NCBI GenBank assembly: GCA_026415035.1 | Contig: JAOAHX010000022.1 | Location: forward strand, 23,026-55,025 | From: Thermodesulfobacteriota bacterium | GTDB lineage: Bacteria; Desulfobacterota; BSN033; UBA1163 | Length of the DNA stretch: 32,000 nucleotides | Reading direction: 5' to 3' | Notes under the pieces: generated by a model | Told to the model about the DNA's origin: nothing | Databases searched by the model: none | Seen by the model: only the letters and a program-made list of their open reading frames with translations | Translations under genes and position numbers: made by a program | Shown: positions 13,573-31,732 of the stretch, piece after piece | Layout: every line of letters begins with the position of its first letter | Numbering within the stretch: the stretch's first letter is position 1

Positions 13573-13599
13573 GGCCAGAGGGGGCCGGAAGGGATTGGA

Positions 13600-14640: not shown

Positions 14641-14713
14641 AGTTTCCCTTTCCCTAAGGGTGAAAATTTTTTAACAAATCCTTTCCGTTTTGACAAGGAA
14701 GGGTTGGACGCTC

Positions 14714-15133: not shown

Positions 15134-15137
15134 GAGG

Positions 15138-16733: not shown

Positions 16734-18098
16734 ATGGATCGGCCTGCCTTCCTTGCGTTGCTCCTTCTGCTCATCCTCTCCTCGATCCACGGGACGACCG
16801 AGGCCCTGGGCGGAGGCCATCCCTGTTGTCCTGAAGATCGGGAGCTTTCTTATCTCCTCCATCCCAAACCCACCCAGAGCTATTCCTACCTGGTCCGGTA
16901 CGAAACCTTTTTCTCCACGGTGTTGGGGAAGGAGAAGGGGTTTTTCGTCATCCTTCCCATCGATTTTTACCAAAATCCCAAAATGCGGTATCCCCACCTT
17001 TATCTTCTTCACGGGTACAATTTCCATCGGAGGGGATGGCGTTGGAAAGCCAAATCTCCCGAAGAGGTGCGGAAGCATCTCTGCGAAGCCAAGGAGGAGG
17101 AATACCATTGGCTTCTCCATGAAGACATCGCGGTGATTGCCTATGCGATGATGGATTCAAAAAATCGGACCTATCGGGAGTTGCAACGTTCCCTGGAGGA
17201 TCGGTTTTATGAGCTTTCAATCCACGGGGGTCTCCTGAAGGAGGACTACCATCCGAGGGAGATTGCCCAATCCCTTGTCCTCCATAATCTCCACCCAGGG
17301 GGAAATTTGGATGACCCCTTCCAGCCTATCCTTAAGATGGTCCTCGTTCTGCCGGACGGAGACAACGGATTCTATACCGATGAAAACGAAGGAAGGAGGC
17401 TCTTTCCCGAAACAGAAAATCGAGGGCCCTGCGATGGGTTCCACCCGAGGGAGTCTTGGAACTATTCGCTCTTCCCTTTCCTTTGGATGCAACCGGGCGC
17501 CTTAGGGCAATACGAGACCTATTTCCTCGAACTGGTCAGACATTTGGAGACCCGATCCCCTTACAGAGAGAGGCTTCTGCCCGTCAGAGGGATCGGAGGG
17601 ATGTCGATGGGCGGGTTCGGGGCCATGAAATTGGGGCTGAAGTATCCCGACCTCTTCCATTCCATCAGCAGTCAGAGCGGGCTGCTGGACCTCGAGCTCC
17701 TCAGGAATCGATGGACCCTGAAGATGGTCCTCCCGGAATTTTTGGAGGTCTTCGGACGCCTCGACCCGAAGAGCCTCCCTCCGGGTTCTCGTCTCGACCT
17801 TTTTTACATCGCTTCCAACAATCCCCTCCGCCTGCTGGCAAAAAGGGGGATCAAGCGATTGCCCCCCTGGATCTATTTCGACTATGGAGAACAAGAGGGA
17901 TATCCTTGGATCGTCGAAGGGAACCGGAATTTCGAGAAGGCCTTGGCCGCGGCGAGCCGCCGGATCTCGGCCCAGGCTTTCAACGGAACTTCCCAGCATA
18001 ATTACCAGTTCTGGCGAAGCCGGGCAGGAAATATGCTGCGGCACCACTCGGAGGTTTTCCGGGGGCTCCTTTTAGGTCATTCCGTGTCTTCGCCCTGA
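16734..18098 (+). CDS. Exported alpha/beta-hydrolase (esterase D / S-formylglutathione hydrolase-like)
   Basis: N-terminal signal (FLALLLLLILSSIHG), YPHLYLLHGYN, GGMSMGGFGAMKLGLKYPDLFHSISSQSG nucleophile elbow. Confidence 0.8.
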   Translation: MDRPAFLALLLLLILSSIHGTTEALGGGHPCCPEDRELSYLLHPKPTQSYSYLVRYETFFSTVLGKEKGFFVILPIDFYQNPKMRYPHLYLLHGYNFHRRGWRWKAKSPEEVRKHLCEAKEEEYHWLLHEDIAVIAYAMMDSKNRTYRELQRSLEDRFYELSIHGGLLKEDYHPREIAQSLVLHNLHPGGNLDDPFQPILKMVLVLPDGDNGFYTDENEGRRLFPETENRGPCDGFHPRESWNYSLFPFLWMQPGALGQYETYFLELVRHLETRSPYRERLLPVRGIGGMSMGGFGAMKLGLKYPDLFHSISSQSGLLDLELLRNRWTLKMVLPEFLEVFGRLDPKSLPPGSRLDLFYIASNNPLRLLAKRGIKRLPPWIYFDYGEQEGYPWIVEGNRNFEKALAAASRRISAQAFNGTSQHNYQFWRSRAGNMLRHHSEVFRGLLLGHSVSSP

Positions 18099-18101: not shown

Positions 18102-19910
18102 CTACTGCTCGAGGAGCAGGCGACCGAGCCTCTCCCGCTCGATCCCCATCCATTCCCACGCCTCGACGTATACCGCTTTCCCTTTCTCGTCGTAAGGGTC
18201 GACAAGGATCTTCCTCAGAAAGAAAGGAGAATTCCTGACATGACATTCTTTGCAGCCTTTGGCCCCGAGAGCGAGGGACCCGGGCCGGACGTTGTGGTTG
18301 AGGGAGAGGTCCGTCGGTCGGGCCCTATCGTGGGGAATCTTCTCCACCGCCCCTTTTTTATCCAATCGATAGAGAAATCCTCCCTTGAGGAGGACGGGCA
18401 GCTCGGCGATGGGATTTCCGAAGCGGTCTCTTCCTTTGAGGGCGAGGAGGAAGGATCGAATCTCCTCGAGGCTGTTCACCTCTGGAACGCCGTCCCCGTT
18501 GTCATCTCGGAGGGGCGGTTTCTTCATCTCCCGGATCTTCCAGAGCGGGATGGGTCTGACGACATTCCTCTTTTCGTCCAGATCTCCCCAGTAGATCGGA
18601 AGGGCGGGCTTCACCGGTACGATCTTTCCCTTGAAATTCCTGAGACCAGGGTACCAGAGAGGGGACCTCGCTCCGGCGGAGGGGATGAAGTCCGAGGTCT
18701 CATAGATCCGTGTCTCTCCGGTGGTGTGATCATAGACGAGCTCCGCGGAAAGGGACCGGTAAGGAAGGTGGCAGGTCTGGCAGGCGATCCTCCGCAGGTG
18801 GCGGGGCGAGAAGGGGTGGCGGGGGCGGGGCGCTTTGCGATCCCTTCTTTTGTAGTGGCAGTCCTCGCAGGAAGGCATCGTCTGGTCCAGGTCGTCTCGG
18901 ACCGTCAACGAGAGGGAATCTCCCTTGGCGATCTGGTGTTCCTTGTTCCCCGGATGGCAGGAGACGCACTCCATCCCTCTGGCCCGGTGGACATCCGTCT
19001 CGGGGCTCCACTCGTATCCCCTCTTCTTTTCTCCATAGGGGGCATGGCAGGACCAGCAATTCTCGGAAGGAGGCCTTCGGACGATCTGAACATGGAGGTT
19101 TTCGAAATCGGCCACCTCCTTGTTGGTGTAATCGATCCGCGGGGAGCCGGTCTGGGCCTCAGGGGTTTGTGGAGAAGGAGGTTTGAAGGTGGCCCAGCCC
19201 GCTCCTGCCGCAGGTCCGTAGCGAAACAGCCCCGCCCTCAGAAAGGCCGCGCGTTCTTTCCATCGATATCCCGGGAGGTGGCAGATGAGACAGTCCGCTT
19301 CGTTCACCCCGCTTCGGTCCCAAGGGGCGCCGTAATTCTCATGGCCTCCGCTGAAAGGGGTATAATCCCCGTCGAGGTGAGGAGGCTCGCCAAAAAATTC
19401 ATAGCCAAACTTCCGTTTCGAGGGATCGTAGTAAGGGTTTCCCCTTCGATCGAACTCGGCCCATCCTCCTCCTGGATGGCAGGGGCCGCAATTCCGGACG
19501 TAGAAGAAGGTGGATCGATCCATTTCGGAAAAGGTCCGATTCGTTTTTCGGGAGAGGAGGCTCGCATCGGGTGAGAGGGGAGAGTATTTTCCATAGAGCC
19601 CGGAGGAGAGACTCCCGGGCGTTTGGGGATCGAAGGTGTCGCTCACCGCGATCTTCCCCGACCCATCCAGGCGGCCCTGTTGGAAGTGGTACCCCTTTGT
19701 GATCTGGTCGTAGTCGTGGCAGGCACCGCAGGTCTTTTTGGGGCTGTAGGGAGACTGGCTCCCCATCGTGAGGGGAGTTCCCTCGTGGTCCCTCAATACG
19801 ATCTTCGGATGAGGGGAAGTCCCGGAGGAGATCGAAGAAGGAGTCGGGGAGAAGAGACCAAGGCCGGCCAGCGCGATCAAAAAGAACGACCCAAAGAGGA
19901 ATCGTTTCAG
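18102..19910 (-). CDS. Multiheme cytochrome c (8 CXXCH motifs), secreted
   Basis: CXXCH: CGACH, CGPCH, CLICH, CWSCH, CVSCH, CEDCH, CQTCH, CKECH. The track starts it at TTG 19880; reading frame-continuous upstream to CTG at 19910 restores a signal peptide (LKRFLFGSFFLIALAGLGLFS). Confidence 0.85.
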   Translation of the reverse strand: MKRFLFGSFFLIALAGLGLFSPTPSSISSGTSPHPKIVLRDHEGTPLTMGSQSPYSPKKTCGACHDYDQITKGYHFQQGRLDGSGKIAVSDTFDPQTPGSLSSGLYGKYSPLSPDASLLSRKTNRTFSEMDRSTFFYVRNCGPCHPGGGWAEFDRRGNPYYDPSKRKFGYEFFGEPPHLDGDYTPFSGGHENYGAPWDRSGVNEADCLICHLPGYRWKERAAFLRAGLFRYGPAAGAGWATFKPPSPQTPEAQTGSPRIDYTNKEVADFENLHVQIVRRPPSENCWSCHAPYGEKKRGYEWSPETDVHRARGMECVSCHPGNKEHQIAKGDSLSLTVRDDLDQTMPSCEDCHYKRRDRKAPRPRHPFSPRHLRRIACQTCHLPYRSLSAELVYDHTTGETRIYETSDFIPSAGARSPLWYPGLRNFKGKIVPVKPALPIYWGDLDEKRNVVRPIPLWKIREMKKPPLRDDNGDGVPEVNSLEEIRSFLLALKGRDRFGNPIAELPVLLKGGFLYRLDKKGAVEKIPHDRARPTDLSLNHNVRPGSLALGAKGCKECHVRNSPFFLRKILVDPYDEKGKAVYVEAWEWMGIERERLGRLLLEQ

Positions 19911-20542
19911 CGAGGGTCACCTCCCTTCAAACAGGGTCGGTCCAAGGCCCTGGGACGGGCCCCCGAGAGCCCCTTTTTCCGACGGGCGATCTCCCGTCTG
20001 GCCATCTCCTTTGCCGAATCGGTCAAGAACCATCGGCCGATGGCCTGTTCGAGGTAGGCGAGCCAAGCGGGCTGGGAGAGGTTAAACCGGTTGGCATCGA
20101 TCGCCACCCCCCTGGCCGAGTAACGCCAGAGTTTGTCCGCATCTTTCACGATCCGATCGTTGAGGGAGAGGGGCCTCTTTCTCGAATCGTGGCCACGGAT
20201 GATCCGACAGATCTCCTCCGTTTTCTCTTTCGGATAACCCATCGTCTCGAGTATCGCCTTGGCGATCTTCGCCCCTTCCCGTTCATGGATCTTCATCAAT
20301 TTAGGGTTGGTGGCCTTGGGTCCAAAGGCCTGGAGGTGGAGGGATGCCGGAATGGCCATCCACCCGACATCGTGAAGCAGGATCGCTGGGATGATGACCT
20401 CTTCGTCGCCCCCTTCCCTCTCGATGAGTTTCAAGGCGTAGCGGCGGGCGATCCGGGTGTGGACCAGATTACACCGGATCTGAAGAAAGGGCCTGGCCAG
20501 CTCAAAGATCTTCTGATAGGTGCTGCCCCTGCGGCTTTTCAC
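19907..20542 (-). CDS. HD-domain phosphohydrolase family protein
   Basis: LLHDVGWMAI and IRGHDSRKRPLSLNDRIVKDADKLWRYS; proposed GTG start at 20542 (VKSRRGSTYQKIFELA), upstream part of the ORF looks non-coding. Confidence 0.75.
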   Translation of the reverse strand: MKSRRGSTYQKIFELARPFLQIRCNLVHTRIARRYALKLIEREGGDEEVIIPAILLHDVGWMAIPASLHLQAFGPKATNPKLMKIHEREGAKIAKAILETMGYPKEKTEEICRIIRGHDSRKRPLSLNDRIVKDADKLWRYSARGVAIDANRFNLSQPAWLAYLEQAIGRWFLTDSAKEMARREIARRKKGLSGARPRALDRPCLKGGDPR

Positions 20543-20608
20543 CTCAGCCCCTTCCTTCGTTGGGTTCGAATGGAAATTATGGTATGATAATTTGATCAGG
20601 GGATCAAG

Positions 20609-21178
20609 ATGAAGCGGATCTATCTGGACCGGAGGGTCTGGCAGGAGTCGAAAGAGAGCTGGGTGAGCTTCGAGAGCGATCCGAACCTTCGAATGACGAA
20701 GTGGAGTATTTATGGGCGCTGTGTCCCCTGCATCACCCATCTCTACGAGCAGTTACAGGCCGGCCGGGACGAAATCGAGTTGAAGGAGGCCTTCCACTGC
20801 TGGAAGGTGGTGGCGGTTCTGAACGATCAAGAGGAGTGCCTGGAGGTCCTCAAGGAGTACGAGGAACGGTTCCTCGGGGATCGCCCGGTCCGAGGGAAGT
20901 TCGGCTCGAGCCAACCGGAAAAGCCCACCAAGGTCTTGATGTTCCATACCGAGGACGAGGGGGAGAAAGACCGGCTTCTGAAGGAGCTGAAGGAGTGCGT
21001 GAAGAGGGTGAATCCGGAGGGAAAGGTCTTCTGTCAGAAGGCCTGTGCCAACCTCTACTATGAACTCCTGGGGGATTGGAGAGAGTGGAAAGAGGTGACC
21101 CGTATCAGGAATGCGGCGGTCCGTTCCGCATTGATCGAGCGGATCAAGAAATTGCTTTACTGGGAGAAAGACGGGTAG
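20609..21178 (+). CDS. Hypothetical protein (189 aa)
   Basis: Well-formed ORF with Cys-containing motifs (YGRCVPCITHLYEQL, GKVFCQKACANLYYELL); convergent overlap of 22 nt with the DUF120 gene. Confidence 0.65.
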   Translation: MKRIYLDRRVWQESKESWVSFESDPNLRMTKWSIYGRCVPCITHLYEQLQAGRDEIELKEAFHCWKVVAVLNDQEECLEVLKEYEERFLGDRPVRGKFGSSQPEKPTKVLMFHTEDEGEKDRLLKELKECVKRVNPEGKVFCQKACANLYYELLGDWREWKEVTRIRNAAVRSALIERIKKLLYWEKDG

Positions 21179-21561
21179 AGGAGGACCTCGATCTCGATCT
21201 CATCGCCTTCTTTTAAAGAGAGGGAGGTCTGGATCTTTTGGGAGGCGATGAGCTCCACCTTGTTTTCGGGATAATGTTCCACGAGGGGAAGAACGATGGC
21301 CCCCCTCAGGCGCTGATGGATGAGGACCGGGTAACAACGAGCCCTGCAGAAGGAGGGGTCTTCCGGGACGATTTCGATCCCCTCCCTCTTTTTGAGATCT
21401 TGGTAGGCCCGAAGCGAATCGAGGTCGTGGATCTGGAGGTTGAGGGTGCCGGGATAGGGATCGATGGAAAGTTTCTCGATGAACTGTCTTCGCACCCAGG
21501 GGATCTGGGTAAATTGATTCGCCTCTTTCAACCCCCCCACAATTTTTCCTCGAATCTTAAT
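21157..21561 (-). CDS. DUF120 domain protein, CTP-dependent riboflavin kinase-like (archaeal RibK type)
   Basis: IRGKIVGGLKEANQF, DPYPGTLNLQIHDLDSL, FCRARCYPVLI, AIVLPLVEHYPENKVELIAS, LSLKEGDEIEIEV. Track starts at GTG 21540; the family N-terminus (KIRGKIVGG) continues upstream to an ATT at 21561. Confidence 0.75.
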   Translation of the reverse strand: MKIRGKIVGGLKEANQFTQIPWVRRQFIEKLSIDPYPGTLNLQIHDLDSLRAYQDLKKREGIEIVPEDPSFCRARCYPVLIHQRLRGAIVLPLVEHYPENKVELIASQKIQTSLSLKEGDEIEIEVLLYPSFSQ

Positions 21562-22156
21562 GGTTCAACCCTCTCTTTTTCAGATGATTTTTGACCGTTT
21601 GGCTCCCCCAGCGGGCGAAGAGGTTGTGTTCGATATGGAAGAGGTCGAGGACCTTTCCGACGGTGTGGTTGATGAGGTCATCCATCGTCTTGGGGTGGAA
21701 ATAGAAGGCCGGGGCAGGCGGAAGGATGATCACCCCGAGGTCGGCCAGGTTCATCATCAGGTTGAGATGGCCTTTGTGGAGCGGGGTTTCCCGGACGACG
21801 AGGACCAGCTTTCGTCGTTCCTTGATCGTGACATCGGCGGCCCGGATCAGGAGGTTGAGGTTGAAAGAGTTGGCGATGGCCGAAAGGCTCTTAATCGAAC
21901 AGGGCATGACGACCATCCCGTCGGTCTGGAAGGAACCGCTGGCGATATCGGCCCCCACATCCTTGATGTCGTAGACCACCTTGGCCAGGGCCCGGACCTC
22001 CTCGACCCTCCAATCGGTCTCCATCCGGATGGTCTTCTCGCCCGCCTCCGTGATCACCAGGTGCGTCTCCACCTTGGATCTCGAGAGGACCTCGAGCAAT
22101 CGGATTCCGTAGATGGCCCCGGTGGCTCCCGAGATTCCCACGATCAACCGTTTCAT
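21557..22156 (-). CDS. ubiX: Flavin prenyltransferase UbiX
   Basis: MKRLIVGISGATGAIYGIRLLEVLS, FQTDGMVVMPCSIKSLSAIANSFNLNLLIRAADVTIKERRKLVLVVRETPLHKGHLNLMMNLADLGVIILPPAPAFYFHPKTMDDLI. Confidence 0.97.
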   Translation of the reverse strand: MKRLIVGISGATGAIYGIRLLEVLSRSKVETHLVITEAGEKTIRMETDWRVEEVRALAKVVYDIKDVGADIASGSFQTDGMVVMPCSIKSLSAIANSFNLNLLIRAADVTIKERRKLVLVVRETPLHKGHLNLMMNLADLGVIILPPAPAFYFHPKTMDDLINHTVGKVLDLFHIEHNLFARWGSQTVKNHLKKRGLNH

Positions 22157-23541
22157 CTCATTCCTTTCGCCTTGAGGTCGTGGAGAAGAGGGGAGAGCCT
22201 TCGTTTTACCTCCTCCGGGACATCGACCTTTTTGAACCCCTCGGGCCTCGGCCGCGTGGCATCCAACCCCATCTTGGCGGTGAAGAACCCCTCTCCCGCT
22301 GAAGGATCGATAGGTTGTCCCCTCATCTCGGTCAATACCATGAGGTCTCGGTCGGCCTGGAAACGGGTGGCCAGGGCCCATTCGATCTCCTGATTGCTGT
22401 GAAGGTCGATGTCCGGATTGACCGCCACTGCCTTTTTGATATGGGGAAAGGAGAGGGCCAAGGCCAGGGCCCTTCGGACCTCCGCCCGGCTATCGGTCTC
22501 TATGCTTATGACCGCATGGGAGCCGAAGGTTCCGGGGACGAAGCGTATCTCCCGGATGGCGGGGACCTCCCTTTTCATCTTTGGCACAAAGTCGAGGCCA
22601 TGGACGAGGTAGAGGAGGTTGTCCACCTCGAGGCTCCAGGGCACGATGGCGTGATAGAAGGCCCCCTTTTTCAGGGTAAGGGCCGTCACCTCGATGGAGG
22701 GGCTCCTGGAGAAGCCCATGTAATAGCCGCTCGATTCTCCGAGGACCCCGTCCTCTTCCTTACCCATGGGATCGATCACGCCTTCGATCACGATCTCGGC
22801 GCGGGCGGGGATTTCGAGATCGACGGTCTCCGCCTTGACCGTCTCGATCGCCCTTCCGATGAGACCTCCCACCAGGGCGAGCTTGTCCATTCCCGGAGGG
22901 GCTTTGAGTATGGGCGCGATGAAGATCAGGGGATCCAGGCCGATGGCCGTGGCGATCTCCATCTTTCTCCGTCTCTTTTTGTACTTCTCGTAGATTTCCG
23001 AAAGGGGAGGGTTGAGCAGGGAGATCCCGAGGCGGTCTTTGCCTCTGAGTTCCATTCGGTGAAGCCCCCGTCCCATCGCGCCGGTTTCGGGATCCCGGGC
23101 GGAAGAGACCCCCGAGGTGATGTAAGGACCGGAGTCGTCCTCATAGTGGGTGAGGATGGGCAACAGCCTCCTCAGGTCGAGGCCCTTTCCCCTTTTGATG
23201 ACCTCCTTGGGGGTCTCCTCGCGGACGAGGACAGGTGGGATTTCTTGTCCGAGGCGCTTAAGAAATTCCTCAAAGAGCGTTTCGGGCTCCGCCCGGAGGG
23301 CCAGGGCCAGGCGTCTTTTCGTTCCGAGAAGGTTACCGACCACGGGCACCCGATGGCCTTTGACCCGCTCAAAAAGGATCGCTGGTGAGTCCCGCTTCCC
23401 CAGCTCCGACAGGACCGCCGAGATTTCATATCGAGGGTCCAGCGGAAGCTTGATGGAAAGGAGGTCGCCTTGGGATCTCAAGGCGTCCAGAAAGTCACCC
23501 AGCCCTGAGATTGGCCTCAAGGAGGCTCCGGAAGAGATCAT
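22153..23541 (-). CDS. UbiD-family decarboxylase (copy A)
   Basis: GLHRMELRGKDRLGI, IPARAEIVIEGVIDP, GESSGYYMGFS, WSLEVDNLLYLVHG. Start set to MISSGASLRPISG, ATGA overlap with the upstream small ORF. Confidence 0.9.
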   Translation of the reverse strand: MISSGASLRPISGLGDFLDALRSQGDLLSIKLPLDPRYEISAVLSELGKRDSPAILFERVKGHRVPVVGNLLGTKRRLALALRAEPETLFEEFLKRLGQEIPPVLVREETPKEVIKRGKGLDLRRLLPILTHYEDDSGPYITSGVSSARDPETGAMGRGLHRMELRGKDRLGISLLNPPLSEIYEKYKKRRRKMEIATAIGLDPLIFIAPILKAPPGMDKLALVGGLIGRAIETVKAETVDLEIPARAEIVIEGVIDPMGKEEDGVLGESSGYYMGFSRSPSIEVTALTLKKGAFYHAIVPWSLEVDNLLYLVHGLDFVPKMKREVPAIREIRFVPGTFGSHAVISIETDSRAEVRRALALALSFPHIKKAVAVNPDIDLHSNQEIEWALATRFQADRDLMVLTEMRGQPIDPSAGEGFFTAKMGLDATRPRPEGFKKVDVPEEVKRRLSPLLHDLKAKGMR

Positions 23542-23795
23542 TGAAATTTGTTGACCTCTTTGAGGATCTTGATCGACCAGGGCCTCTCCTGGAGTTGACC
23601 CCTTCCCAGGCGGACCCACAGAAGGTCTGGGTATTTGGTCTCCGATTTGGAGACCATGGCAATGGCGTAGGTACTTCTGTATTTATAGCGGCGATCCTCA
23701 GGGGTGAGGTCTCGGACGATCATCTCCATCTCCTGGTCTTCTGGGAAGGTGTCGGGGTCTGTCAGAATGAAGGTGTCGTACTCTTTTCTGGCCAT
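23538..23795 (-). CDS. Small conserved-looking protein (85 aa) between two UbiD genes; candidate small subunit
   Basis: MARKEYDTFILTDPDTFPEDQEMEMIVRDLTPEDRRYKYRSTYAIAMVSKSETKYPDLLWVRLGRGQLQERPWSIKILKEVNKFQ; 11-nt gap from UbiD copy B, ATGA overlap with UbiD copy A. Confidence 0.75.
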   Translation of the reverse strand: MARKEYDTFILTDPDTFPEDQEMEMIVRDLTPEDRRYKYRSTYAIAMVSKSETKYPDLLWVRLGRGQLQERPWSIKILKEVNKFQ

Positions 23796-23806
23796 GCTCT
23801 CCCTCC

Positions 23807-25258
23807 TCAATCCTTGAATCCATAGGCTTTCCAGTTGGTCAAAACCTTTTCCTGAATCGCCTTGGGGTAGATATCGGGGTTGCTGAAATTGACCTTGATC
23901 GGAACCATCCCCTTCGGCCAATCGAGGGGGAAGGTGCAGTCGAAGAGGACCTGAGCGCCCCGGCTCCACTTTCGATCGGCGGGGTCGGCGAAGGGATAGA
24001 GCGGCGTTCCGGGGGCCTGTTCATATTTTCGAATGCCCCGGATGGGATGGCATTTGGTGCAGAGATCGTGAATCACCTCGTCCTTGTTGTAGATATCGGT
24101 TTTATCATCGACCACGACGACCATGTGGAACCAAGGGCTCAATTTCGATCCGAAGACGAGATTGGCAATCTGGGTGGCGATCCCGCTGTAGGCGACCTTG
24201 GTTCCGACGACGACAAGATGGTGGGTCGATTCGGGCCACATGAAGACCCCGGTGATGGGAATGCCCTGGCTTTCGAGGAGCTTTCTCATTTCAAGGCCTA
24301 ATGAAAAAGATCGCAGCAATTGCCCCTCGTCGGTGGGGACGCCCATATTGGAGACCGTCAAGATGGGGTTGTTGCGGAAGGTGATGGCCTTGATCCGGTA
24401 AACGGTCCTCGGTTCTCTCGGGGAGGTCCGATAGCCCGTATACTCTCCGAAGGGCGCCTCCTCGATCAAGACGTTGGGAATGACGTCTCCCTCGATGATG
24501 ATCTCGGCATGGGCCGGGACGAGGAGGTCGTTCGTTTCGCACGGGACCAGCTCCACGGGAGCGCCCATCAACATGCCCGTGAACTCGTCTTCGGGGATGG
24601 GGGAAGGGGCGCAGGCGGCCACCCCAGCCAGGGGATCGCAGCCGATGACCGTAGCAAAGGGCATGGGTTTGTTTTTGGGGACGTATTTTCCATAAAACAT
24701 CTTTCCCATGTCGGAAAAGGGAAGGACCGGGCCGACCATGGTCTTTTCGTCGAAGACCGACTGTCGGTACATCCCCCAGTTGACGAATCCGTTGTCAGGA
24801 TCTTTGGAGACGACGAAATGCCATGTGGCCAGATACCTCCCTCCATCTCCTCCGTGAACCATCGGGGCCGGCAACTTGAAGAGGTCAGCATCCTTGTCCA
24901 GCCAGATGTTCTCTTTACAGGGAGCCTTTTTCTTGTCGACGACGACCGGTTTGATCGGCTCTCCGGTCGTTCGCTTCACATACTCATCGGAGATTTCAGG
25001 CACGGAGGCATCTGGTTGCATGCCCATGGCGATGGCGAGCCGTTTGTAGGTGGCCAAAGGGGCCCCGAAGGCTTCGAATCCCGGATAGTCCCGAATCTTT
25101 TTAAAGTAGGGGGCAGGTGATTTCCGTTCGCAGACCCTGCGGACGATCGCGCCCATCTCAAGGTCCCAGTCCACCTCCTGGTGGATGGTGACGAGGTCGT
25201 CATGGGTCTCCAGGGCCTTGATGAATTCCCGATTATCTTTGTAAAACGTATAAGCCAT
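23807..25258 (-). CDS. UbiD-family decarboxylase (copy B)
   Basis: MAYTFYKDNREFIKALETHDDLVTIHQEVDWDLEMGAI, NWGMYRQSVFDEKTMG, VPAHAEIIIEGDVIPNVLIEEAPFGEYTGYRTSP. Confidence 0.93.
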   Translation of the reverse strand: MAYTFYKDNREFIKALETHDDLVTIHQEVDWDLEMGAIVRRVCERKSPAPYFKKIRDYPGFEAFGAPLATYKRLAIAMGMQPDASVPEISDEYVKRTTGEPIKPVVVDKKKAPCKENIWLDKDADLFKLPAPMVHGGDGGRYLATWHFVVSKDPDNGFVNWGMYRQSVFDEKTMVGPVLPFSDMGKMFYGKYVPKNKPMPFATVIGCDPLAGVAACAPSPIPEDEFTGMLMGAPVELVPCETNDLLVPAHAEIIIEGDVIPNVLIEEAPFGEYTGYRTSPREPRTVYRIKAITFRNNPILTVSNMGVPTDEGQLLRSFSLGLEMRKLLESQGIPITGVFMWPESTHHLVVVGTKVAYSGIATQIANLVFGSKLSPWFHMVVVVDDKTDIYNKDEVIHDLCTKCHPIRGIRKYEQAPGTPLYPFADPADRKWSRGAQVLFDCTFPLDWPKGMVPIKVNFSNPDIYPKAIQEKVLTNWKAYGFKD

Positions 25259-25281
25259 CACATCCTCCTTTCGGAATGGTT

Positions 25282-25824
25282 TTAATCCCCTTTCGAGAGT
25301 TTTTCGATCACGTCGGTCCACTTCCCCTGGGCCCTGAGGATGAATTCGGCCACCTCCCTGACCACCCCCCTTCCACCCCCTGCCAGGGTCACATAATCCG
25401 CCACCTCTTTGGCCTCGACCGAGCCGTCTGAGGGGGCGACCGAAAAACCGACCCGCTTCATGACGCCCAGGTCGATCATCTCGTCCCCGACGTAGCAGAT
25501 CTCCTCGTCCTTGAGGCCAGAGTCTTTTTCAAATTCATCGAGCTTTCCGATCTTGGCCGAGGTCCCCCATAATTTCTCCAGCGGGACCCCGTAGATCTTC
25601 CCCACCTGTTCATCCGTCCTCGTGATTTTACTGGTCAGGAAGGCCACGCCGATCCCCCCTTCCTGGAGGGCCAGGCATCCCAGACGGTCGCGAAGGGAGA
25701 AGCATTCCGACTTCTTCCCATCATCCGTATAATATAGGGTGTTATCCGTCAGGATCCCGTGAATGTCGAGGATCACAAACTTTACCTTTTTGGCTTTCTC
25801 AACGGCCTGCTCCCTGTCTTTCAT
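25282..25824 (-). CDS. KdsC-like HAD hydrolase (phenylphosphate carboxylase delta-subunit-like), copy 1
   Basis: VILDIHGILTDNTLYYTDDG, FLTSK, SAKIGKLDEF, CYVGDEMIDLGVMKRVGFSVAPSD, ADYVTLAGGGRGVVREVAEFIL. Confidence 0.88.
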   Translation of the reverse strand: MKDREQAVEKAKKVKFVILDIHGILTDNTLYYTDDGKKSECFSLRDRLGCLALQEGGIGVAFLTSKITRTDEQVGKIYGVPLEKLWGTSAKIGKLDEFEKDSGLKDEEICYVGDEMIDLGVMKRVGFSVAPSDGSVEAKEVADYVTLAGGGRGVVREVAEFILRAQGKWTDVIEKLSKGD

Positions 25825-27494
25825 CGGAAACCTCCCCTTTCGAAATCTCCTTTCAGTTTTCTCTCGATATCCTCTTTGAGGGCCTTCTTGTCGATCTTTT
25901 CCGCTTTGGTCAAGGGCATCCGATCGACGAACTCGATCCTCTCCGGAAGCTGGAGGACCGAGGCCTTCTTCTCTTTGAGGTGGGCGATGATCTTTTCAAA
26001 GCTTAAATCCGCCCCCGGCCTGGGTTGAATGTATGCGCAGACCCGTTCTCCGAGGTCCGGGTCGGGCATGGGCACGACCGCAACCAGGGCGACATCGGGA
26101 TGGGTGCTGATCAGGGATTCGATCTCCGTGGCGCTGATGCTTTCGCCTCCTCGATTGATCATCTCTTTGACCCGGCCGGTGAGCCTGACCACGCCCCTTT
26201 CATCGATGATGGCCAGATCCCCGGTCCGGAAAAACCCATCTTCGGTGAAAACCTTCGCATTCTCCTCGGGCGCTTTGTAGTAACCGGTGAAGACTCCCGG
26301 CCCTTTGATGACCAATTCTCCCGGCGTGTTGGGAGGGAGCTCTCTGCCGTCCGGGCCCACCACCTTGTAAAGGTCGTAAGGACAGGTGGGTTTCCCCACG
26401 GTATGGAGGATCGTCTCGAGAGGATCCCCGGTTCGGGTCAGGGTGGTCTGGCCCTCTGTGCCTCCATACCCATTGTAGAAGTGACAGCGGAGATCTTCCC
26501 TCACCCCCTTCACCAGCTCAGGAAGGCTCAGGCTCCCGCCACAATGCATTGCCCTCAGGGAACGGAGATCATAGTTTTTCCGGCCTTCGTAGTCGAGTAG
26601 CCTTTTTGCAAGCGTCGGCGTCCAGACGATCGTGGTCACCCTCTCTCTCTGGATCGTCTCGCAGACCTCCTTCATCTCCGTCGTATCGAGAAAGACGTTC
26701 TTGCCAAAGGCAAAAAGGGTGCTTCCGAGCCCTTTGGTGAAGGTGAGGTCATGGCCGATCGGTCCGGCGAGGAGGCAGGTGTCTCTGTGACTCACTTCCC
26801 AGGCATAGGCGGCAAATTCCATGGTGCAAATGAGGCTGTTGTGGGTTCGGGGGACCAGTTTGGGAAGACCCGTCGTCCCACCCGTGGGACCCATGTGGGC
26901 GACCTCCATGGGATCCGGTCTTCTCAAGGCAAGCCGGGTGAGGTTGGCTTCGTTGAGCTCCACCCCTGCCATCAATTTCTCCATGCTTTTATAGAGTCCC
27001 AGACCCTCGCTCCGGACAAGGATGACGTTTCTCAAAAAAGGGGTCTCCTTGACCACATCCTCGACGATGGGAAGGTAATCGGTCTTCTTATATTTTTCCG
27101 GCACGATCCACAAGGTGGCCTCCGAGAGTTTGGCCAGGTACTGGATCTCGTGCTGTCGATAGCGGTCGATGAGCAACACCGGGATGGCACCGACCTTTTG
27201 GGTTGCAAAGTAGGCGAAGACGAACTCCACCCAGTTTGGGAGTTGAATCAGGACGCGGTCTCTCGGGGCGACCCCAAGGTCCAAAAGGCTCACCGCGAGG
27301 CGGTCGGTTTTCTCCCTCGCCTCTTTGAAGGTGAGCCGGTGCTGTCCGTCCACAAAGGCCTCTTTGTCCGGAAAGACATCCGCCGCCTTGTCCAGGAGAT
27401 CCCCCAAGGTCATACCGGACCACCAGCGAAGGCGAATATATTTCTCAGCATCTTCTTGGGGATAAGGGGTGAAGCCTTCGAGATAGCCTGTCAT
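25821..27494 (-). CDS. AMP-dependent aryl-acid ligase (2,3-dihydroxybenzoate-AMP ligase / aryl-CoA ligase-like)
   Basis: MGPTGGTTGLPKLVPRTHNS (A3), FYNGYGGTEG, YYKAPEENAKVFTEDGFFRTGDLAIIDERGVVRLTGRVKEMINRGGESISATEIE, VLQLPERIEFVDRMPLTKAEKIDKKAL. Confidence 0.92.
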   Translation of the reverse strand: MTGYLEGFTPYPQEDAEKYIRLRWWSGMTLGDLLDKAADVFPDKEAFVDGQHRLTFKEAREKTDRLAVSLLDLGVAPRDRVLIQLPNWVEFVFAYFATQKVGAIPVLLIDRYRQHEIQYLAKLSEATLWIVPEKYKKTDYLPIVEDVVKETPFLRNVILVRSEGLGLYKSMEKLMAGVELNEANLTRLALRRPDPMEVAHMGPTGGTTGLPKLVPRTHNSLICTMEFAAYAWEVSHRDTCLLAGPIGHDLTFTKGLGSTLFAFGKNVFLDTTEMKEVCETIQRERVTTIVWTPTLAKRLLDYEGRKNYDLRSLRAMHCGGSLSLPELVKGVREDLRCHFYNGYGGTEGQTTLTRTGDPLETILHTVGKPTCPYDLYKVVGPDGRELPPNTPGELVIKGPGVFTGYYKAPEENAKVFTEDGFFRTGDLAIIDERGVVRLTGRVKEMINRGGESISATEIESLISTHPDVALVAVVPMPDPDLGERVCAYIQPRPGADLSFEKIIAHLKEKKASVLQLPERIEFVDRMPLTKAEKIDKKALKEDIERKLKGDFERGGFR

Positions 27495-27524
27495 CTCATC
27501 CTCCTCTCCAAGGCTTGGGGAAGG

Positions 27525-28082
27525 TCATTTGTATCCCATGCGGGTCACCTTTTCGACCCACTCTTCCCATTTTCCCATCGAACGGAGGATGAATTCACAG
27601 GTCTCCCGGATTGGCCCTCGACCTCCGGGTGCGGTGGTGATGTAGTCGGCGACCTCCTTCACTTCATCGATGGCATCGGCTGTGGCCACAGCGAATCCGA
27701 CCCTTTTCAGGAGGGGGAGGTCCGTGATTTCGCAACCGATGTAACCCACCTCTTGGTCGCTGAGGTTCAGCTCACGTTTTAACTCCTCCAGTTTTGCCAC
27801 TTTATCTTTCACCCGGAAGTAGAATTTATCGAGTTTTAATTCCCTGGCGCGGAAGAGCCCCTCCTCATCGATGGAGGTCGTATCCAAAAACGCGATCTGG
27901 ATTCCATTGGCCGTCAGGGAGAGATCGCCAAACCCGTCCATGTGCCAGAAGGCATACTTCCGTCGGCCTTCGATATCGCAGAAGAAGGTGTTCGGGGTGA
28001 GGACGCCGTGGACATCGTGGGCGAACAATTTGATCCTCTTGGCCTTCTCTCTCGCCTTTGCGAGGTCTTTTTCGAATCCCAT
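27525..28082 (-). CDS. KdsC-like HAD protein, copy 2 (degenerate motif IV)
   Basis: LFAHDVHGVLTPNTFFCDIEG, FLDTTS, RVKDKVAKLEEL, GYIGCEITDLPLLKRVGFAVATAD, ADYITTAPGGRGPIRETCEFIL. Confidence 0.85.
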   Translation of the reverse strand: MGFEKDLAKAREKAKRIKLFAHDVHGVLTPNTFFCDIEGRRKYAFWHMDGFGDLSLTANGIQIAFLDTTSIDEEGLFRARELKLDKFYFRVKDKVAKLEELKRELNLSDQEVGYIGCEITDLPLLKRVGFAVATADAIDEVKEVADYITTAPGGRGPIRETCEFILRSMGKWEEWVEKVTRMGYK

Positions 28083-28119
28083 GCCTTTCTCCTTTCCCTC
28101 AAGCCTTTCGGGGACCGGC

Positions 28120-28611
28120 TCAGCCCAGCTTTTTCCCCAGTTGGTAGTAGCGATTTTCGAACCAGATCAAGGGTTTCAACTTGGGTCGGATCTTGTGGGC
28201 GACGACCTTCCCGACGTAGAGGATATAGTCGCCCTCCTTCACCGAATTCACCAGTTTACATTCGAGATTGGCGAAACAATCGGTGATCATGCTTCCTTTG
28301 ATCGTAGAGGCAGGCTCGGTGTTGATCTTAAATGTCTTCAATTTGTCGATGGATTCTCCGTGGATCGCCCCTAACTTCTCGGCCAGGTCGACCTGATGGG
28401 TGGAGGCGAGGTTCACGACGAATTCCTTGGCCTTGGGGATGAGGCGATGGGTGGTGCTCTCCTTGGAGATGCTGATGGCGATCAGGGGAGGGGAATCCGA
28501 GACAAACATCCCCGAAGCCGTCATGAGATTATGTTTCCCCCCTGCTTCGACGCTCACAAAGGTGACGATGCAGGGAAGTTCTCCAAAAATTACATCTCTA
28601 TAATGCCACAT
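28120..28611 (-). CDS. Flavin reductase-like / FMN-binding split-barrel protein
   Basis: HNLMTASGMFVSDSPPLIAISISKESTTHRLIPKAKEFVVNLAS; ECKLVNSVKEGDYILYVGKVVA. Confidence 0.88.
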   Translation of the reverse strand: MWHYRDVIFGELPCIVTFVSVEAGGKHNLMTASGMFVSDSPPLIAISISKESTTHRLIPKAKEFVVNLASTHQVDLAEKLGAIHGESIDKLKTFKINTEPASTIKGSMITDCFANLECKLVNSVKEGDYILYVGKVVAHKIRPKLKPLIWFENRYYQLGKKLG

Positions 28612-28647
28612 CTTGCCCTTCCTCCTTTCTCTGCGTTCAGAACCGAT

Positions 28648-30072
28648 TCAATCCTCAAACCCGTACTCCTTCCATCGGGACTTCACCTTGGCCAGCATCG
28701 CTTCCGAAAGCTTGATTTCCGTCGGCTTGACCGTCCACTCAAAGGGGATGGTGGCGTCGAGGATGATCCGGGAGGTGATAAATTTATTGTCCTCCGGCCC
28801 GAGGGAAGGATCGAGGGGGGTCGATCGTCCGCGGTGGATGATCTGGGTGCCCCGCTGAGGGTTATAACGCGTCCCGAGGGCCCACCATACCCGGGGGAGG
28901 TCGTCGGCCTCGATGTCGTGATCGACGATGATCACCATTTTCACCCCGTACATTCCTGTGTTGCTCGCGATCACCGCAGCTGCCACCTGATCGGCATGAC
29001 CTGGATACATCTGCTCCACGGAGACGACCACGATAAATCGGCCGGAGGCCTCGGGCAGGGTGTAGACCGATTTGATTCCAGGGATCTCCATCTTGGCCAG
29101 TTCGGTCCAGAGGCTGGCGTTCCTCGTGAAGGCATAGAGGATATGCTGGTCTCCGACGGGCCTGCCCACGCTCGTTTCCCAGAGGATGGGGTTGTTTCGA
29201 TGATAGATCCGTTTTACGTCGAGAGCGGGCTTCGGGATGGGTTTGATCAATTCCTCCGTGTAATAACCGGTATATTCTCCGAAGGGGCCTTCGTTTCGGA
29301 GGTTTTTCGGATCGATCTCCCCTTCGAGAACGATCTCCGCGGCCGCAGGGATGGGGAGCCCCGTCAGGGGGGCCTTGACGATCTCGACGGGTTCCCCTCG
29401 TAAAGAGCTCACCACGTCGTAACCACTCTTCGCCTTCACCGTGGTGGCCGCACCGGCCAGGACGTGGAGGGGGTCTCCCCCGATGATGGCACAAGCGGGC
29501 ATCTTTTTGCCCGCCTTGGCATACTTTTTCAAGATGCGGTCCCCTTTTTTCCCCTTCAGGATCTGGACGCCCACCGTCTTATCATCGAGGATCCCCATCC
29601 GGTAGGTTCCGAGATTGATATCGCCGGACTCGGGGTCCTGCAACACCATGAAGACCGCGGTCCCGAAATACCGACCCCCATCGAGCTCATAGAATCTGGG
29701 GGAGGGGAAAGCAAAGGTATCCACCTTGTCTCCCTCGAGGACGTTTTCGAAGATGGGCCCATCTTTCTGCTCCTTGGCCTTAATCACTTCCTTGACGGCC
29801 ACATTGACCCATTCCTTGGTGAGCTGGACCATGGAAAGGGAGGGGTCCTTTCCCAGGATGATGGCGAGCCTTTTGGTCGTTCCGAAAGCGCCGGTCAGAA
29901 CGGGGCTGGTATATCCCTTGACGTTTTCAAAAAGCAGGGCCGGTCCGCTTTTCTCTTCCACGAGCTTGGCGATATGGGAGATCTCGAGGTCCCAATCCAC
30001 CTCGGCCTTGATCCGTTTTAATTCCCCGACCGCTTCACATTTAGCGATAAATTCCCTGAGGTCCATCTTCAC
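28648..30072 (-). CDS. UbiD-family decarboxylase (copy C)
   Basis: INLGTYRMGILDDKTVGVQI, IPAAAEIVLEGEIDPKNLRNEGPFGEYTGYYTE, NNPILWETSVGRPVGDQHILY. Confidence 0.95.
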   Translation of the reverse strand: MKMDLREFIAKCEAVGELKRIKAEVDWDLEISHIAKLVEEKSGPALLFENVKGYTSPVLTGAFGTTKRLAIILGKDPSLSMVQLTKEWVNVAVKEVIKAKEQKDGPIFENVLEGDKVDTFAFPSPRFYELDGGRYFGTAVFMVLQDPESGDINLGTYRMGILDDKTVGVQILKGKKGDRILKKYAKAGKKMPACAIIGGDPLHVLAGAATTVKAKSGYDVVSSLRGEPVEIVKAPLTGLPIPAAAEIVLEGEIDPKNLRNEGPFGEYTGYYTEELIKPIPKPALDVKRIYHRNNPILWETSVGRPVGDQHILYAFTRNASLWTELAKMEIPGIKSVYTLPEASGRFIVVVSVEQMYPGHADQVAAAVIASNTGMYGVKMVIIVDHDIEADDLPRVWWALGTRYNPQRGTQIIHRGRSTPLDPSLGPEDNKFITSRIILDATIPFEWTVKPTEIKLSEAMLAKVKSRWKEYGFED

Positions 30073-30164
30073 CCTCCTTCCCCAATCGTGGGTTAAAAGT
30101 CGATTTGGCCTTCATTATCTTTTGAACAGGAGGGGCTTGTCAATTCATTTATTTTTATGTTTTA

Positions 30165-30179
30165 ATAACTTCTGGTTAT
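30165..30179. promoter_or_regulatory. Inverted repeat ATAAC-N5-GTTAT overlapping the LysR start codon, candidate operator
   Basis: Perfect 5-bp arms read directly: ATAACTTCTGGTTAT; LysR ATG begins at 30178. Confidence 0.3.
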
Positions 30180-31119
30180 GGGCAAGCAGATCCCCCTTTA
30201 TGATTCGATCCAATCCCTTTTCGTTTTCCACGAGGTGGCGAAGCAGAAGAGTTTTTCGAAGGCCGCCGAGGAACTCTACGTCACCCAGCCCGCGGTGACC
30301 AAACACATCAAAGGGCTCGAGCAGAAGATCGGGATGCGCTTGATCGAAAGGGGAAAGGCCGGTTTCGGCCTGACGGAAGCGGGAAAGATCCTTTTCAAAT
30401 CGACCCAGAGGATCGCAGGACACCTTCAGGAGGTCGAGCATCTTCTTGGAAAACTCCGGAAGGAGCACCATGGTTTTCTGAGAATTGGAACGACGGAATC
30501 CTATTCCCGATGCCTGATGCCCGAACTTCTCTCGGAATTTCAGACGCGCTTTCCTTCGATCAAGATCGCCCTCGATGTCGGGAGCTCGGAGGAGATAGAG
30601 AAGAGCCTGCTGGCCTACCAGAACGATGTGGCCTTGATCGCCGTGACCAAAATTTCCCCCAAGTTCGAATGCGTTCCGTTTCTTAAGGAAGAACTCGTCC
30701 TGATCGTCTCCCCCCAGCATCCCCTGGCCAGCCACCGGAGCGTCTCCCTCAGGGCCGTGGAGGGATACCCTTTTATCATCCGGGCCAGAGGATCGACGAC
30801 GAGAAAAATCGTGACGGAGGCCTTCAAAGAGCTGGGAGTTCACCCCTCCCTTTTCATCGAAGCCGGCAGCTCAGAATTCATCAAACAGTGGGTCTCCGAA
30901 GGAAGAGGGATTTCGGTCATCGTCGATCGGATCGCTGAGGAGGAGGCGAAAAGGGGACAGGTGGTCCGGATCCCCCTGGAAGAAAGATTCCAGTTACAGG
31001 TCTCTTTGCTCTATCTGAAGGCGGAGAGAGGCAACCCGGCCATCCAACATTTCAGCCGCTTCATCGAGGAGAAGAGGGAGGGGGGAGGCAAGGTACGGAA
31101 TTTACAAATTAAAACTTGA
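30178..31119 (+). CDS. LysR-family transcriptional regulator, divergent from the ubiD operon
   Basis: FHEVAKQKSFSKAAEELYVTQPAVTKHIKGLEQKIGMRLIERG N-terminal HTH, LTEAGKILF, effector domain FLRIGTTESYSRCLMPELLSEFQTRFPSIKIAL. Confidence 0.95.
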   Translation: MGKQIPLYDSIQSLFVFHEVAKQKSFSKAAEELYVTQPAVTKHIKGLEQKIGMRLIERGKAGFGLTEAGKILFKSTQRIAGHLQEVEHLLGKLRKEHHGFLRIGTTESYSRCLMPELLSEFQTRFPSIKIALDVGSSEEIEKSLLAYQNDVALIAVTKISPKFECVPFLKEELVLIVSPQHPLASHRSVSLRAVEGYPFIIRARGSTTRKIVTEAFKELGVHPSLFIEAGSSEFIKQWVSEGRGISVIVDRIAEEEAKRGQVVRIPLEERFQLQVSLLYLKAERGNPAIQHFSRFIEEKREGGGKVRNLQIKT

Positions 31120-31144
31120 CAAAAAAATAATACTTGGTTAAAAA
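31116..31144 (+). promoter_or_regulatory. Candidate sigma-70 promoter for the downstream tRNA genes
   Basis: TTGACA at 31116-31121, 17-nt spacer, AT-rich weak -10 (TAAAAA) at 31139-31144; overlaps the lysR stop codon. Confidence 0.35.
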
Positions 31145-31253
31145 TAATAAGTTAAAAATCTTTTTGCTCTGGGATCTTCTAATATAACTCATTGATTTTC
31201 CAATCTTTTTGTTTGCACGGAGGATTTTGCTCAAAAGCAATTCAAAAGATCTT

Positions 31254-31338
31254 GGAGAGGTTCCCGAGCGGCCAAAGGGGACAGACTGTAAATCTGTTGG
31301 CAATGCCTTCGGAGGTTCGAATCCTCCCCTCTCCACCA
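31254..31338 (+). tRNA. tRNA-Tyr (GTA)
   Basis: Acceptor GGAGAGG/CCTCTCC, anticodon loop CTGTAAA, long variable arm, GGTTCGAATCC T-arm, encoded CCA. Confidence 0.95.
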
Positions 31339-31484: not shown

Positions 31485-31560
31485 GCGGGAGTAGCTCAGT
31501 TGGTAGAGCATCAGCCTTCCAAGCTGAGGGTCGCGGGTTCGATCCCCGTTTCCCGCTCCA
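31485..31560 (+). tRNA. tRNA-Gly (TCC)
   Basis: Acceptor GCGGGAG/TTCCCGC region, anticodon loop CTTCCAA, GGGTTCGATCCC T-arm, encoded CCA. Confidence 0.95.

Positions 31561-31656: not shown

Positions 31657-31732
<76 letters not shown>

Follow-up and report, generated by a model that had tools for sequence, protein, structure and literature searches.

A probable phenylphosphate carboxylase operon with prenylated-flavin supply genes in a Syntrophorhabdus-like anaerobe

We analysed a 32,000-nucleotide stretch of contig JAOAHX010000022.1 from a Thermodesulfobacteriota bacterium, a Syntrophorhabdus-like uncultured anaerobe; the whole stretch is called the window below. Its minus strand carries ten open reading frames (ORFs) that run from 30066 or 30072 down to 21157. 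Judging from their sequences, they probably (at about 0.7) form a LysR-controlled operon for a phenylphosphate (aryl-phosphate) carboxylase of the Syntrophorhabdus/Desulfobacterota type, together with a supply line for its cofactor, prenylated flavin mononucleotide (prFMN). The operon belongs to a known system and does not amount to a new one.

A first-pass annotation of this DNA had listed the same ten ORFs, and their order and coordinates were reproduced when the ORFs were checked again and compared with Pfam. In the direction of transcription, the operon begins with the gene of a PpcB-like UbiD protein, the beta subunit (28648..30066; Pfam UbiD_N, UbiD and UbiD_C; TIGR02724), followed by an HpaC-like protein of the flavin-reductase family (28120..28611; PF01613 Flavin_Reduct, 109.5 bits), HAD2, a Ppc delta-like, KdsC-derived paralogue (27525..28082; Pfam Hydrolase_3, TIGR02726), an adenylate-forming ligase of the DhbE/EntE clade (25821..27494; AMP-binding and AMP-binding_C), and HAD1, a Ppc delta-like phosphatase subunit (25282..25824; Hydrolase_3, TIGR02726). 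Then come a PpcA-like UbiD protein, the alpha subunit (23807..25258; the same three UbiD domains and TIGR02723), a Ppc gamma-like small subunit of 85 amino acids (23538..23795; PF09662 Phenyl_P_gamma), a third, PpcX-like UbiD protein (22153..23541, in the frame 22153-23619; the three UbiD domains and TIGR00148), a PpcY-like flavin prenyltransferase of the UbiX type (21557..22156; Pfam Flavoprotein, NF004685, TIGR00421) and, as the final gene, a DUF120 homologue of the archaeal-type CTP-dependent riboflavin kinases (21157..21540; PF01982 CTP-dep_RFKase).

The ppcB-like gene most likely starts at the ATG at 30066, the GTG at 30072 being less likely, because AAGGAGG stands 6 nt upstream of the former and the TIGR02724 alignment begins at residue 3. 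For the ppcA-like gene, the frame 23807-25321 was corrected to a start at the ATG at 25258. Three junctions (25821-25824, 23538-23541 and 22153-22156) do read ATGA on the minus strand, as described earlier; the remaining intergenic gaps are 36, 37, 30, 23, 11 and 16 nt, and most starts are preceded by GGAGG-type ribosome-binding sites. Upstream of ppcB lies a divergent gene of a LysR-type regulator (30178..31119, plus strand; Pfam HTH_1 and LysR_substrate), which probably controls the operon. The two genes are separated by a gap of 105 bp with a predicted sigma-70-like promoter on the minus strand (30114..30143; TTGACA-18-GATAAT, 11/12 matches), the best and the sole strong promoter-like match in 20400-31300. 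That region holds 13 terminator-like sites, no excess over the mean of 14.2 after shuffling, and the Rfam scan gave three tRNAs only, with no riboswitch in the operon leader. The single promoter, the short gaps and the ATGA overlaps fit one operon.

Conservation was assessed by a scan with the alpha protein, taking one genome per species, which gave 79 loci at 62-97% identity. The window proteins were mapped onto these loci by tblastn, and the loci covering the stretch from ppcB to ubiX (n = 54) are called complete; L numbers are used where loci or contigs have to be told apart. Thauera sequences entered the comparison through the hidden Markov models built from them.

The alpha protein scored 709.5 bits on TIGR02723 (phenyl_P_alpha; NCBIfam equivalog cut-off 564.6) and the beta protein 690.2 bits on TIGR02724 (phenyl_P_beta; cut-off 468.95), so that both pass, and the gamma protein passes PF09662 (47.7 bits; gathering score 25). 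The gamma gene was present in all 54 complete loci, in each directly after ppcA. In UbiD enzymes, the residues N175, R180, E241, E285 and D290 contribute to the prFMN and Mn2+/K+ site and to the E-R-E/D network; positions are given here by the numbering of E. coli UbiD, checked on an alignment to that protein. All five equivalents are kept in the alpha protein, in 79 of the 79 homologues. The beta protein keeps N175, R180, E285 and D290 (the last as Glu), and its E241 equivalent is Gly, both here and in 41 of 68 homologues. As it retains the full catalytic and metal-binding signature, alpha is the best candidate for, and likely is, the prFMN-dependent catalytic subunit. The literature searched assigned no catalytic role to individual Ppc subunits, and a search of the PDB found no phenylphosphate carboxylase structure. 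According to PMC6114531, the alpha, beta and gamma subunits of the Thauera enzyme catalyse CO2 exchange, the delta subunit is a phosphatase-family protein required for phenylphosphate carboxylation, and the enzyme requires K+ and Mg2+ or Mn2+. These traits, like the formation of 4-hydroxybenzoate from phenylphosphate and CO2 and the sensitivity to oxygen, are established for Thauera alone.

For both HAD proteins the top-scoring family was phenyl_P_delta (TIGR02726), with 132.8 bits for HAD1 and 124 bits for HAD2, the KdsC model giving 106 bits for the latter. The two proteins are 42% identical. Their motif I reads DIHG in HAD1 and DVHG in HAD2, compared with D-x-D-G in KdsC, and the D-x-H-G form is also found in single HADs of other lineages. 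HAD1 keeps the nucleophilic Asp and an intact motif IV (GDEMID, of the form GDExxD), and is likely the catalytic phosphatase subunit. In HAD2, motif IV has become GCExxD, with the first, Mg-binding Asp lost; this degenerate paralogue is probably a structural partner of HAD1 in a KdsC-like oligomer, since KdsC enzymes are tetramers. Replacement of the general-acid Asp of motif I by His suggests that the leaving group would depart as phenolate, the species that attacks CO2. Neither the DxH motif nor the loss of the Mg-binding Asp in HAD2 could be traced in the literature searched. Taken together, the alpha and beta equivalogs, the Pfam match of gamma and the delta family as best match of both HADs bear out the earlier proposal of a multi-subunit system based on phenylphosphate carboxylase.

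UbiD and UbiX genes accompanied by a small subunit would also be expected if the operon encoded a VdcBCD/ShdBCD/EcdBCD-type enzyme, a reversible decarboxylase of hydroxyarylic acids that runs chiefly towards decarboxylation, and the VdcC and VdcB models do score partially here. These scores, however, are 295, 234 and 221 bits against 650 for VdcC and 245 against 290 for VdcB; the small subunit belongs to the Ppc gamma family, and a VdcD-type protein is lacking. Such a system would have no use for two conserved phosphatase-type subunits or for the linkage to phenylphosphate synthase (pps) genes seen in orthologues, and we regard it as very improbable.

For the third UbiD, the one model passed is the generic TIGR00148 (288 bits against 245), and its closest solved relative is HmfF (6h6x, 268 bits). 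Here N175 is replaced by Gly (52 of 69 homologues), E285 by Asp (62 of 69) and E241 by a Lys that is invariant in the 69 homologues. Hence this protein is predicted to have no canonical metal site and not to bind the cofactor phosphate via the usual Mn2+/K+ site; the loss of the ligands and the invariant Lys were not traced in the literature searched. The UbiX protein passes both subfamily models (NF004685, 261.5 against 188 bits; TIGR00421, 247 against 108.9 bits). The DUF120 protein matches PF01982 over model positions 3-121 of 121 (105.7 bits) and aligns to residues 13-129 of MJ0056, with the PYxGTLN motif kept as PYPGTLN; its equivalog scores are under the cut-offs (ribK_Meth, 50 against 168 bits; NF010762, 79 against 279 bits).

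The core ppcB-HAD2-HAD1-ppcA-gamma-ppcX-ubiX-DUF120 is kept in some 50 genomes, as a check of the gene neighbourhood proposed with the first-pass annotation showed. Its carriers include Syntrophorhabdus aromaticivorans UI (L049), a phenol degrader in culture, as well as Desulfosarcina variabilis, D. cetonica and many metagenome-assembled genomes (MAGs) from the subsurface and anoxic waters; the closest relative, L007 (97% alpha identity), is labelled as an uncultured Syntrophorhabdus sp. Among the complete loci, the third UbiD gene was found in 53, two tandem HAD genes in 42 (S. aromaticivorans UI among them), one HAD gene in 12, the DUF120 gene in 43, and a divergent homologue of the LysR gene no more than 6 kb from ppcA in 37, mostly placed directly upstream of ppcB.

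These counts bear on what had been described as extensions of the phenylphosphate carboxylase theme. The third UbiD and UbiX are the known PpcX/PpcY (ORF7/8) pair; further UbiD-like (PpcX) and UbiX-like (PpcY) genes downstream of ppc are known in nitrate reducers and syntrophs (PMC5946492), which removes the extra UbiD and the UbiX from the list. Nor is the second HAD an addition, and the extra UbiD and second HAD are rejected as novel extensions, both being standard in the operon family; the DUF120 gene fares no better, given its presence in most of the complete loci. What does remain special to this small lineage is the ligase, and with it the flavin-reductase-like gene.

Genes for the synthesis of phenylphosphate accompany many of these operons. 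In L023-25, L027 and L083, with alpha proteins 80-81% identical to that of the window, ppsA (a 641-aa protein of the PEP-utilizers family) and ppsB (a 358-aa PPDK_N protein) immediately precede ppcB and share its orientation. In about 38 of the 79 loci a pps pair is no more than 10 kb away, and S. aromaticivorans UI has a ppsB-type gene approximately 6 kb before ppcB, where the stretch examined begins. This distribution also bears on the possibility that the enzyme carboxylates non-phenolic aromatics, as do the benzene carboxylase AbcAD and the naphthalene/phenanthrene enzymes, with an aryl-acid coenzyme A (CoA) ligase of its own. In the benzene-carboxylase clusters described in PMC5852087, PpcA-like UbiD genes likewise occur together with a ligase and UbiX. 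On the other hand, alpha and beta score above the equivalog cut-offs specific for phenylphosphate carboxylase, they are accompanied by gamma-like and delta-like subunits, orthologues are found behind ppsAB and in the phenol degrader S. aromaticivorans UI, and most members of the family have no ligase. We consider such an enzyme extremely improbable.

Two genes of the operon lie outside the conserved core. The flavin gene or a close homologue (78-90% identity) occupies the ppcB-HAD2 spacer in the window, L004, L007, L009 and L043 alone, and the ligase gene stands between HAD2 and HAD1, among the loci mapped, only in the window, L004, L007 and L010. As L009 carries the flavin gene without the ligase and L010 the ligase without the flavin gene, the two are independent insertions into spacers of a pre-existing operon. 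The full ten-gene set was recovered from at least two independent sources, L004 (a contig of a JGI metagenome, with six further similar places) and L007.

A word-indexed search over 5.8 billion proteins returned 12 close homologues of the flavin protein and one at 33% identity; in L017 a 35% homologue is encoded on the opposite strand, downstream of the operon. The closest solved relative is PheA2 (53 bits), and the AlphaFold model is poor (predicted local distance difference test, pLDDT, of 50 from 13 sequences). PhdC is an HpaC-like prFMN maturase, showing that HpaC-like proteins can mature prFMN, and its authors state that it is unclear which physiological oxidant activates prFMNH2 in strict anaerobes (PMC13040415). 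By analogy, a maturase function of the flavin protein is a lead only, and a role as a plain NAD(P)H:FMN reductase is equally possible; plausibly, judging from its family, it either reduces FMN for UbiX or acts on the redox state of prFMN.

The ligase matches DhbE over its full length (1md9, 351.6 bits), followed by a salicylate-AMP ligase (5wm2, 336.9 bits), and keeps the catalytic Lys region. The pocket for 2,3-dihydroxybenzoate (DHB) or salicylate, by contrast, is not kept (N235D, Y236L, V329G, V337T and a one-residue deletion at S240), and the same replacements are conserved throughout the ligase family regardless of the genomic context. The NCBIfam equivalog scores are far under the cut-offs (379 against 723.55 and 328 against 783 bits), and Pfam detected no aryl carrier protein or nonribosomal peptide synthetase gene near the ligase, and no carrier-protein gene elsewhere in the window. 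A 2,3-DHB ligase was therefore rejected, on the grounds of the replaced pocket and the lack of a carrier protein nearby; from its context, the protein may instead be a hydroxybenzoate:CoA ligase.

The Desulfobacterota family to which the ligase belongs is large and tightly conserved (more than 120 clusters, 66-88% identical). The ligase was rejected as a marker of the carboxylase system, since homologues 67-77% identical stand in unrelated neighbourhoods; the neighbours of unlinked homologues include URO-D genes with TRAP transporters, methylmalonyl-CoA genes and Amidohydro_2. In one MAG, a ppsAB-ppc operon lies on contig L030 and a ligase homologue on the separate contig L086. L025 and L027 have homologues at 65% identity immediately past the end of the ppc operon, and a 67% homologue in L001 overlaps a CO_deh_flav_C (HcrB-like) gene. 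The linkage of such a ligase to ppc recurs in three separate forms, namely inside the operon as here, downstream of it (L025, L027), and in the phe cluster of Desulfatiglans anilini.

Several observations nevertheless weigh against phenylphosphate carboxylation as the function of the operon. The gamma protein reaches 51 bits on TIGR02725, below the equivalog cut-off of 135.55, and both HADs (132.8 and 124 bits) are under the TIGR02726 cut-off of 282, a cut-off that single-HAD relatives (162-164 bits) likewise miss. As the first-pass annotation stated, tblastn finds no pps-like gene in the 32-kb window, and upstream of the LysR gene stand tRNA-Tyr, tRNA-Gly, tRNA-Thr and tuf; linked pps genes are also lacking near the nearest relatives, with alpha identities of at least 85% (L004, L007-L017, L043), whether the ligase is present or not. 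The ligase does not belong to the known 4-hydroxybenzoate or benzoate CoA-ligase families, and most genomes with a member of its family carry it away from ppc (L001, L002, L005, L006, L086, L087). Finally, there was no PhdC chain among the 26 PDB matches of the flavin protein at E <= 0.01.

Because pps is missing both with and without the ligase, its unlinking characterises the sublineage independently of the ligase, and the absence of a linked pps says little about the substrate. It had been suggested on this ground that the substrate may not be phenol; the suggestion is weakened by the ppsAB genes upstream of ppcB in the 80-81% identical orthologues, while for this sublineage it can still be entertained.

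If the missing synthase is taken at face value, the carboxylase could act on free phenol or another phenolic compound, the co-translated ligase consuming ATP to trap the product as a CoA thioester, which would draw the unfavourable carboxylation forward, and the HAD pair being structural only. No pps gene occurs within 21 kb downstream of the operon, and the genes upstream are housekeeping ones (the tRNAs and tuf); moreover, the ligase gene has been inserted within the operon, where it separates the two HAD genes and has a 4-nt overlap, and HAD2 is degenerate. However, HAD1 keeps its nucleophilic Asp and Mg-binding motif, clearly conserved, and pps genes may sit elsewhere in the genome. Close relatives without the ligase (L008, L009, L011-L017) are also without linked pps; therefore the gain of the ligase and the unlinking of pps are not coupled. 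Such a synthase-independent route seems improbable to us.

The other alternative retains the enzyme type and changes its physiological substrate: an aryl phosphate derived from another phenolic or anilinic compound such as catechol, hydroquinone, cresol or aniline, with the ligase activating the matching substituted benzoate. The Thauera enzymes reportedly accept catechol. In addition, the sublineage lost the ppsAB linkage and gained a ligase whose pocket is unlike that of DhbE and carries Asp at 235, the equivalent of which binds the amino group in amino-acid-activating adenylation domains. D. anilini, for its part, reuses a PpcB-like protein for aniline (PMC7500099). Against a changed substrate, PpcA and PpcB are 80-97% identical to proteins from ligase-free operons and 80-81% identical to those fused to ppsAB, and the ligase pocket is identical family-wide and therefore no marker of a substrate switch in this operon. 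On balance a substrate other than phenylphosphate is rather unlikely, and we return to phenylphosphate carboxylation.

For that reaction the following sequence of steps can be proposed, based on what is known of the families, apart from the features of the operon observed above. An aryl phosphate, most likely phenylphosphate, would come from a phenylphosphate synthase whose genes lie in another part of the genome. HAD1 would dephosphorylate it, with HAD2 probably as a structural partner, and the His present in motif I of both HADs would let the leaving group depart as phenolate and not as phenol. The alpha and beta subunits with the 85-aa gamma subunit would then carboxylate the phenolate with CO2 to hydroxybenzoate, alpha likely harbouring the prFMN site. 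UbiX would make prFMNH2 from FMN supplied by the DUF120 kinase homologue, and PpcX, having lost its metal ligands, would be an accessory protein, possibly in cofactor handling. Of the two proteins inserted in the sublineage, the HpaC-like one may supply FMNH2 to UbiX or join the redox maturation of prFMN, and the ligase would most likely turn hydroxybenzoate into its CoA thioester, thereby pulling the carboxylation forward.

The classical counterpart is PpcABCD with ORF7/8 of Thauera aromatica K172 and Aromatoleum aromaticum. Common to both systems are two UbiD proteins, a gamma-like subunit of about 10 kDa, a delta-like subunit of the KdsC/HAD type, and additional UbiD-like and UbiX-like genes downstream. 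The differences are the two tandem HAD paralogues here against the single delta of the four-subunit Thauera enzyme, gamma and delta scores under the equivalog cut-offs, the lack of an adjacent pps, the added DUF120, flavin-reductase-like and DhbE-like genes, and a regulator of the LysR type. The gene order is also different, being B-(flavin protein)-HAD2-(ligase)-HAD1-A-gamma here and, as is reported, ppcBCAD in Thauera.

Much closer is S. aromaticivorans UI, where the eight-gene core is orthologous and has the same order, with a divergent LysR gene in both organisms. Identities are 80% for PpcB, 72% for HAD2, 71% for HAD1, 70% for PpcA, 57% for gamma and 61% for UbiX, and just 38% for PpcX and 32% for DUF120. 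The DxH motif in both HADs and the Lys at the E241 position of PpcX are shared as well. The UI locus differs in having, besides its ppsB gene, three UPF0261 genes around the cluster, all of which the window lacks, and in lacking the ligase and flavin-reductase-like insertions.

In D. anilini, a gene annotated as '2,3-dihydroxybenzoate-AMP ligase' (H567DRAFT_02058) stands beside ppcB (02059) in the phe cluster H567DRAFT_02049-02059; this ligase gene is induced on phenol, its function being unknown (PMC6114531). The likeness to the window consists in this ligase gene by ppcB, the two ligases being likened by annotation, and in a ubiX-like gene within the cluster (PMC6114531, PMC7500099). The D. 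anilini cluster, however, contains only PpcB-like UbiD proteins, no gamma and no clustered delta, and the organism has ppsAB and a separate 4-hydroxybenzoate ligase resembling phenylacetate-CoA ligases. DhbE and EntE themselves resemble the ligase over the full length but differ in the residues binding DHB or salicylate. In the phenazine-1-carboxylate decarboxylase system PhdABC, PhdC too is a small HpaC-like PF01613 protein encoded in a UbiD/UbiX operon, with Glu47 and Glu136 as conserved residues; PhdC-like sequences have been reported solely from Actinomycetota (PMC13040415), and nothing closer than membership in the HpaC-like family was seen between PhdC and the flavin protein.

In a further, though unlikely, scheme the operon of the pps-unlinked sublineage would form a complete module for carboxylation under strictly anaerobic conditions. 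Here the HpaC-like protein, possibly with PpcX, would carry out or assist the oxygen-independent redox maturation and hand-over of prFMN, the ligase would trap the product and thereby link ATP use to carboxylation, and the DxH proteins HAD1 and HAD2 would form a specialised phenolate-delivering module and no ordinary phosphatase.

Phenylphosphate carboxylase performs the key CO2-fixing step of anaerobic phenol degradation, and the operon family described here is widespread in subsurface and anoxic-water Desulfobacterota. Its members combine one UbiD with the full signature (alpha), two UbiD paralogues with differing losses of metal ligands, and phosphatase subunits with His in place of Asp. 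In the literature searched we found no description of the tandem DxH delta paralogues, of a PpcX without its metal site, or of the conserved DUF120 gene, nor of the HpaC-like and DhbE-like genes inside the operon of the small lineage. The operon thus offers a handle on the supply and maturation of prFMN in strict anaerobes and on the roles of the carboxylase subunits, and, being compact, is convenient for probing the oxidation of prFMNH2 and the role of the phenol-induced 'DHB-AMP ligase'.

Some ligase homologues occur in settings of their own. Those in L005 (8537-15082) and L006 (10001-15953), 72-77% identical, adjoin a URO-D-family gene and a TRAP transporter, and others are near Amidohydro_2 and isochorismatase-family genes (L001, L005, L087). 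There are hints that the family serves the catabolism of hydroxy- and methoxybenzoates generally.

Convergent to the operon, and overlapping the end of its DUF120 gene, is a 189-aa gene (20609..21178, plus strand) with no match in Pfam or NCBIfam. Its AlphaFold model (pLDDT 83) had no meaningful fold match in the PDB, the TM scores being at most 0.36 and the matches generic alpha/beta sandwiches. Homologues are present in 25 of the 54 complete loci, some adjoining ppsB or directly following ubiX, and five Cys are invariant in the family (C38, C41, C64, C77 and C146). Members stand beside pps/ppc clusters in MAGs of Desulfobacterota, Deferrisomatales and Firmicutes (L049:20118-20705, L054:1470, L040:1049, L060:7468, L045:13848). 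This recurrent neighbour is at most a possible part of the carboxylase system.

UPF0261 genes (PF06792/PF23189), absent from the window, surround the ppc clusters of relatives, being located in L049 at 1242-2480, 4316-5581 and 18725-19981 and found also in L013, L017, L018, L021, L022, L032 and L065. They often adjoin the 189-aa gene and a second LysR gene.

On the other side of the operon, tRNA-Tyr (31254-31338), tRNA-Gly (31485-31560) and tRNA-Thr (31657-31732) are followed by the start of tuf (EF-Tu), which runs off the window end. The related contigs L007-L009, L011-L014 and L016 begin approximately 0.3-1 kb upstream of the LysR gene, at or near this tRNA-tuf region; a repeated housekeeping region probably explains these contig ends as assembly breaks.

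Just beyond the end of the operon, on the minus strand (18102-20740), are genes of a multihaem cytochrome c of 592 aa and an HD-domain protein of 277 aa. Synteny of the cytochrome gene extends to L004, L007, L009, L010 and L014, whilst L007 and L009 are the sole close relatives in which the HD gene is seen; L048 has a 35% homologue of it.

Further along the same strand, the region 9073-17120 is a possible cluster for uptake and activation. It comprises genes of a DUF362 protein (9073-10080), a DUF6599 protein (9960-10907), a 4Fe-4S protein (10894-11760), a fused TRAP DctQM (11747-13495), DctP (13600-14640) and a protein resembling NDP-forming acyl-CoA synthetases (15138-17120); the synthetase and DctP are syntenic in L007.

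The remaining genes lie near the start of the window. An extracytoplasmic-function (ECF) sigma factor (1630-2199), a zf-HC2 anti-sigma factor (1121-1633) and a GAF and HD_5 (HD-GYP-like) protein (2600-3721), all in the region 687-3721, are unrelated to the operon. They are followed on the plus strand by a DEAD-box helicase with a C-terminal MrfA Zn-binding domain (3702-6155) and a protein with RNase_H_2 and TPR domains (6210-7493), a pair (3702-7493) which we take to resemble the MrfA/MrfB pair of DNA repair.

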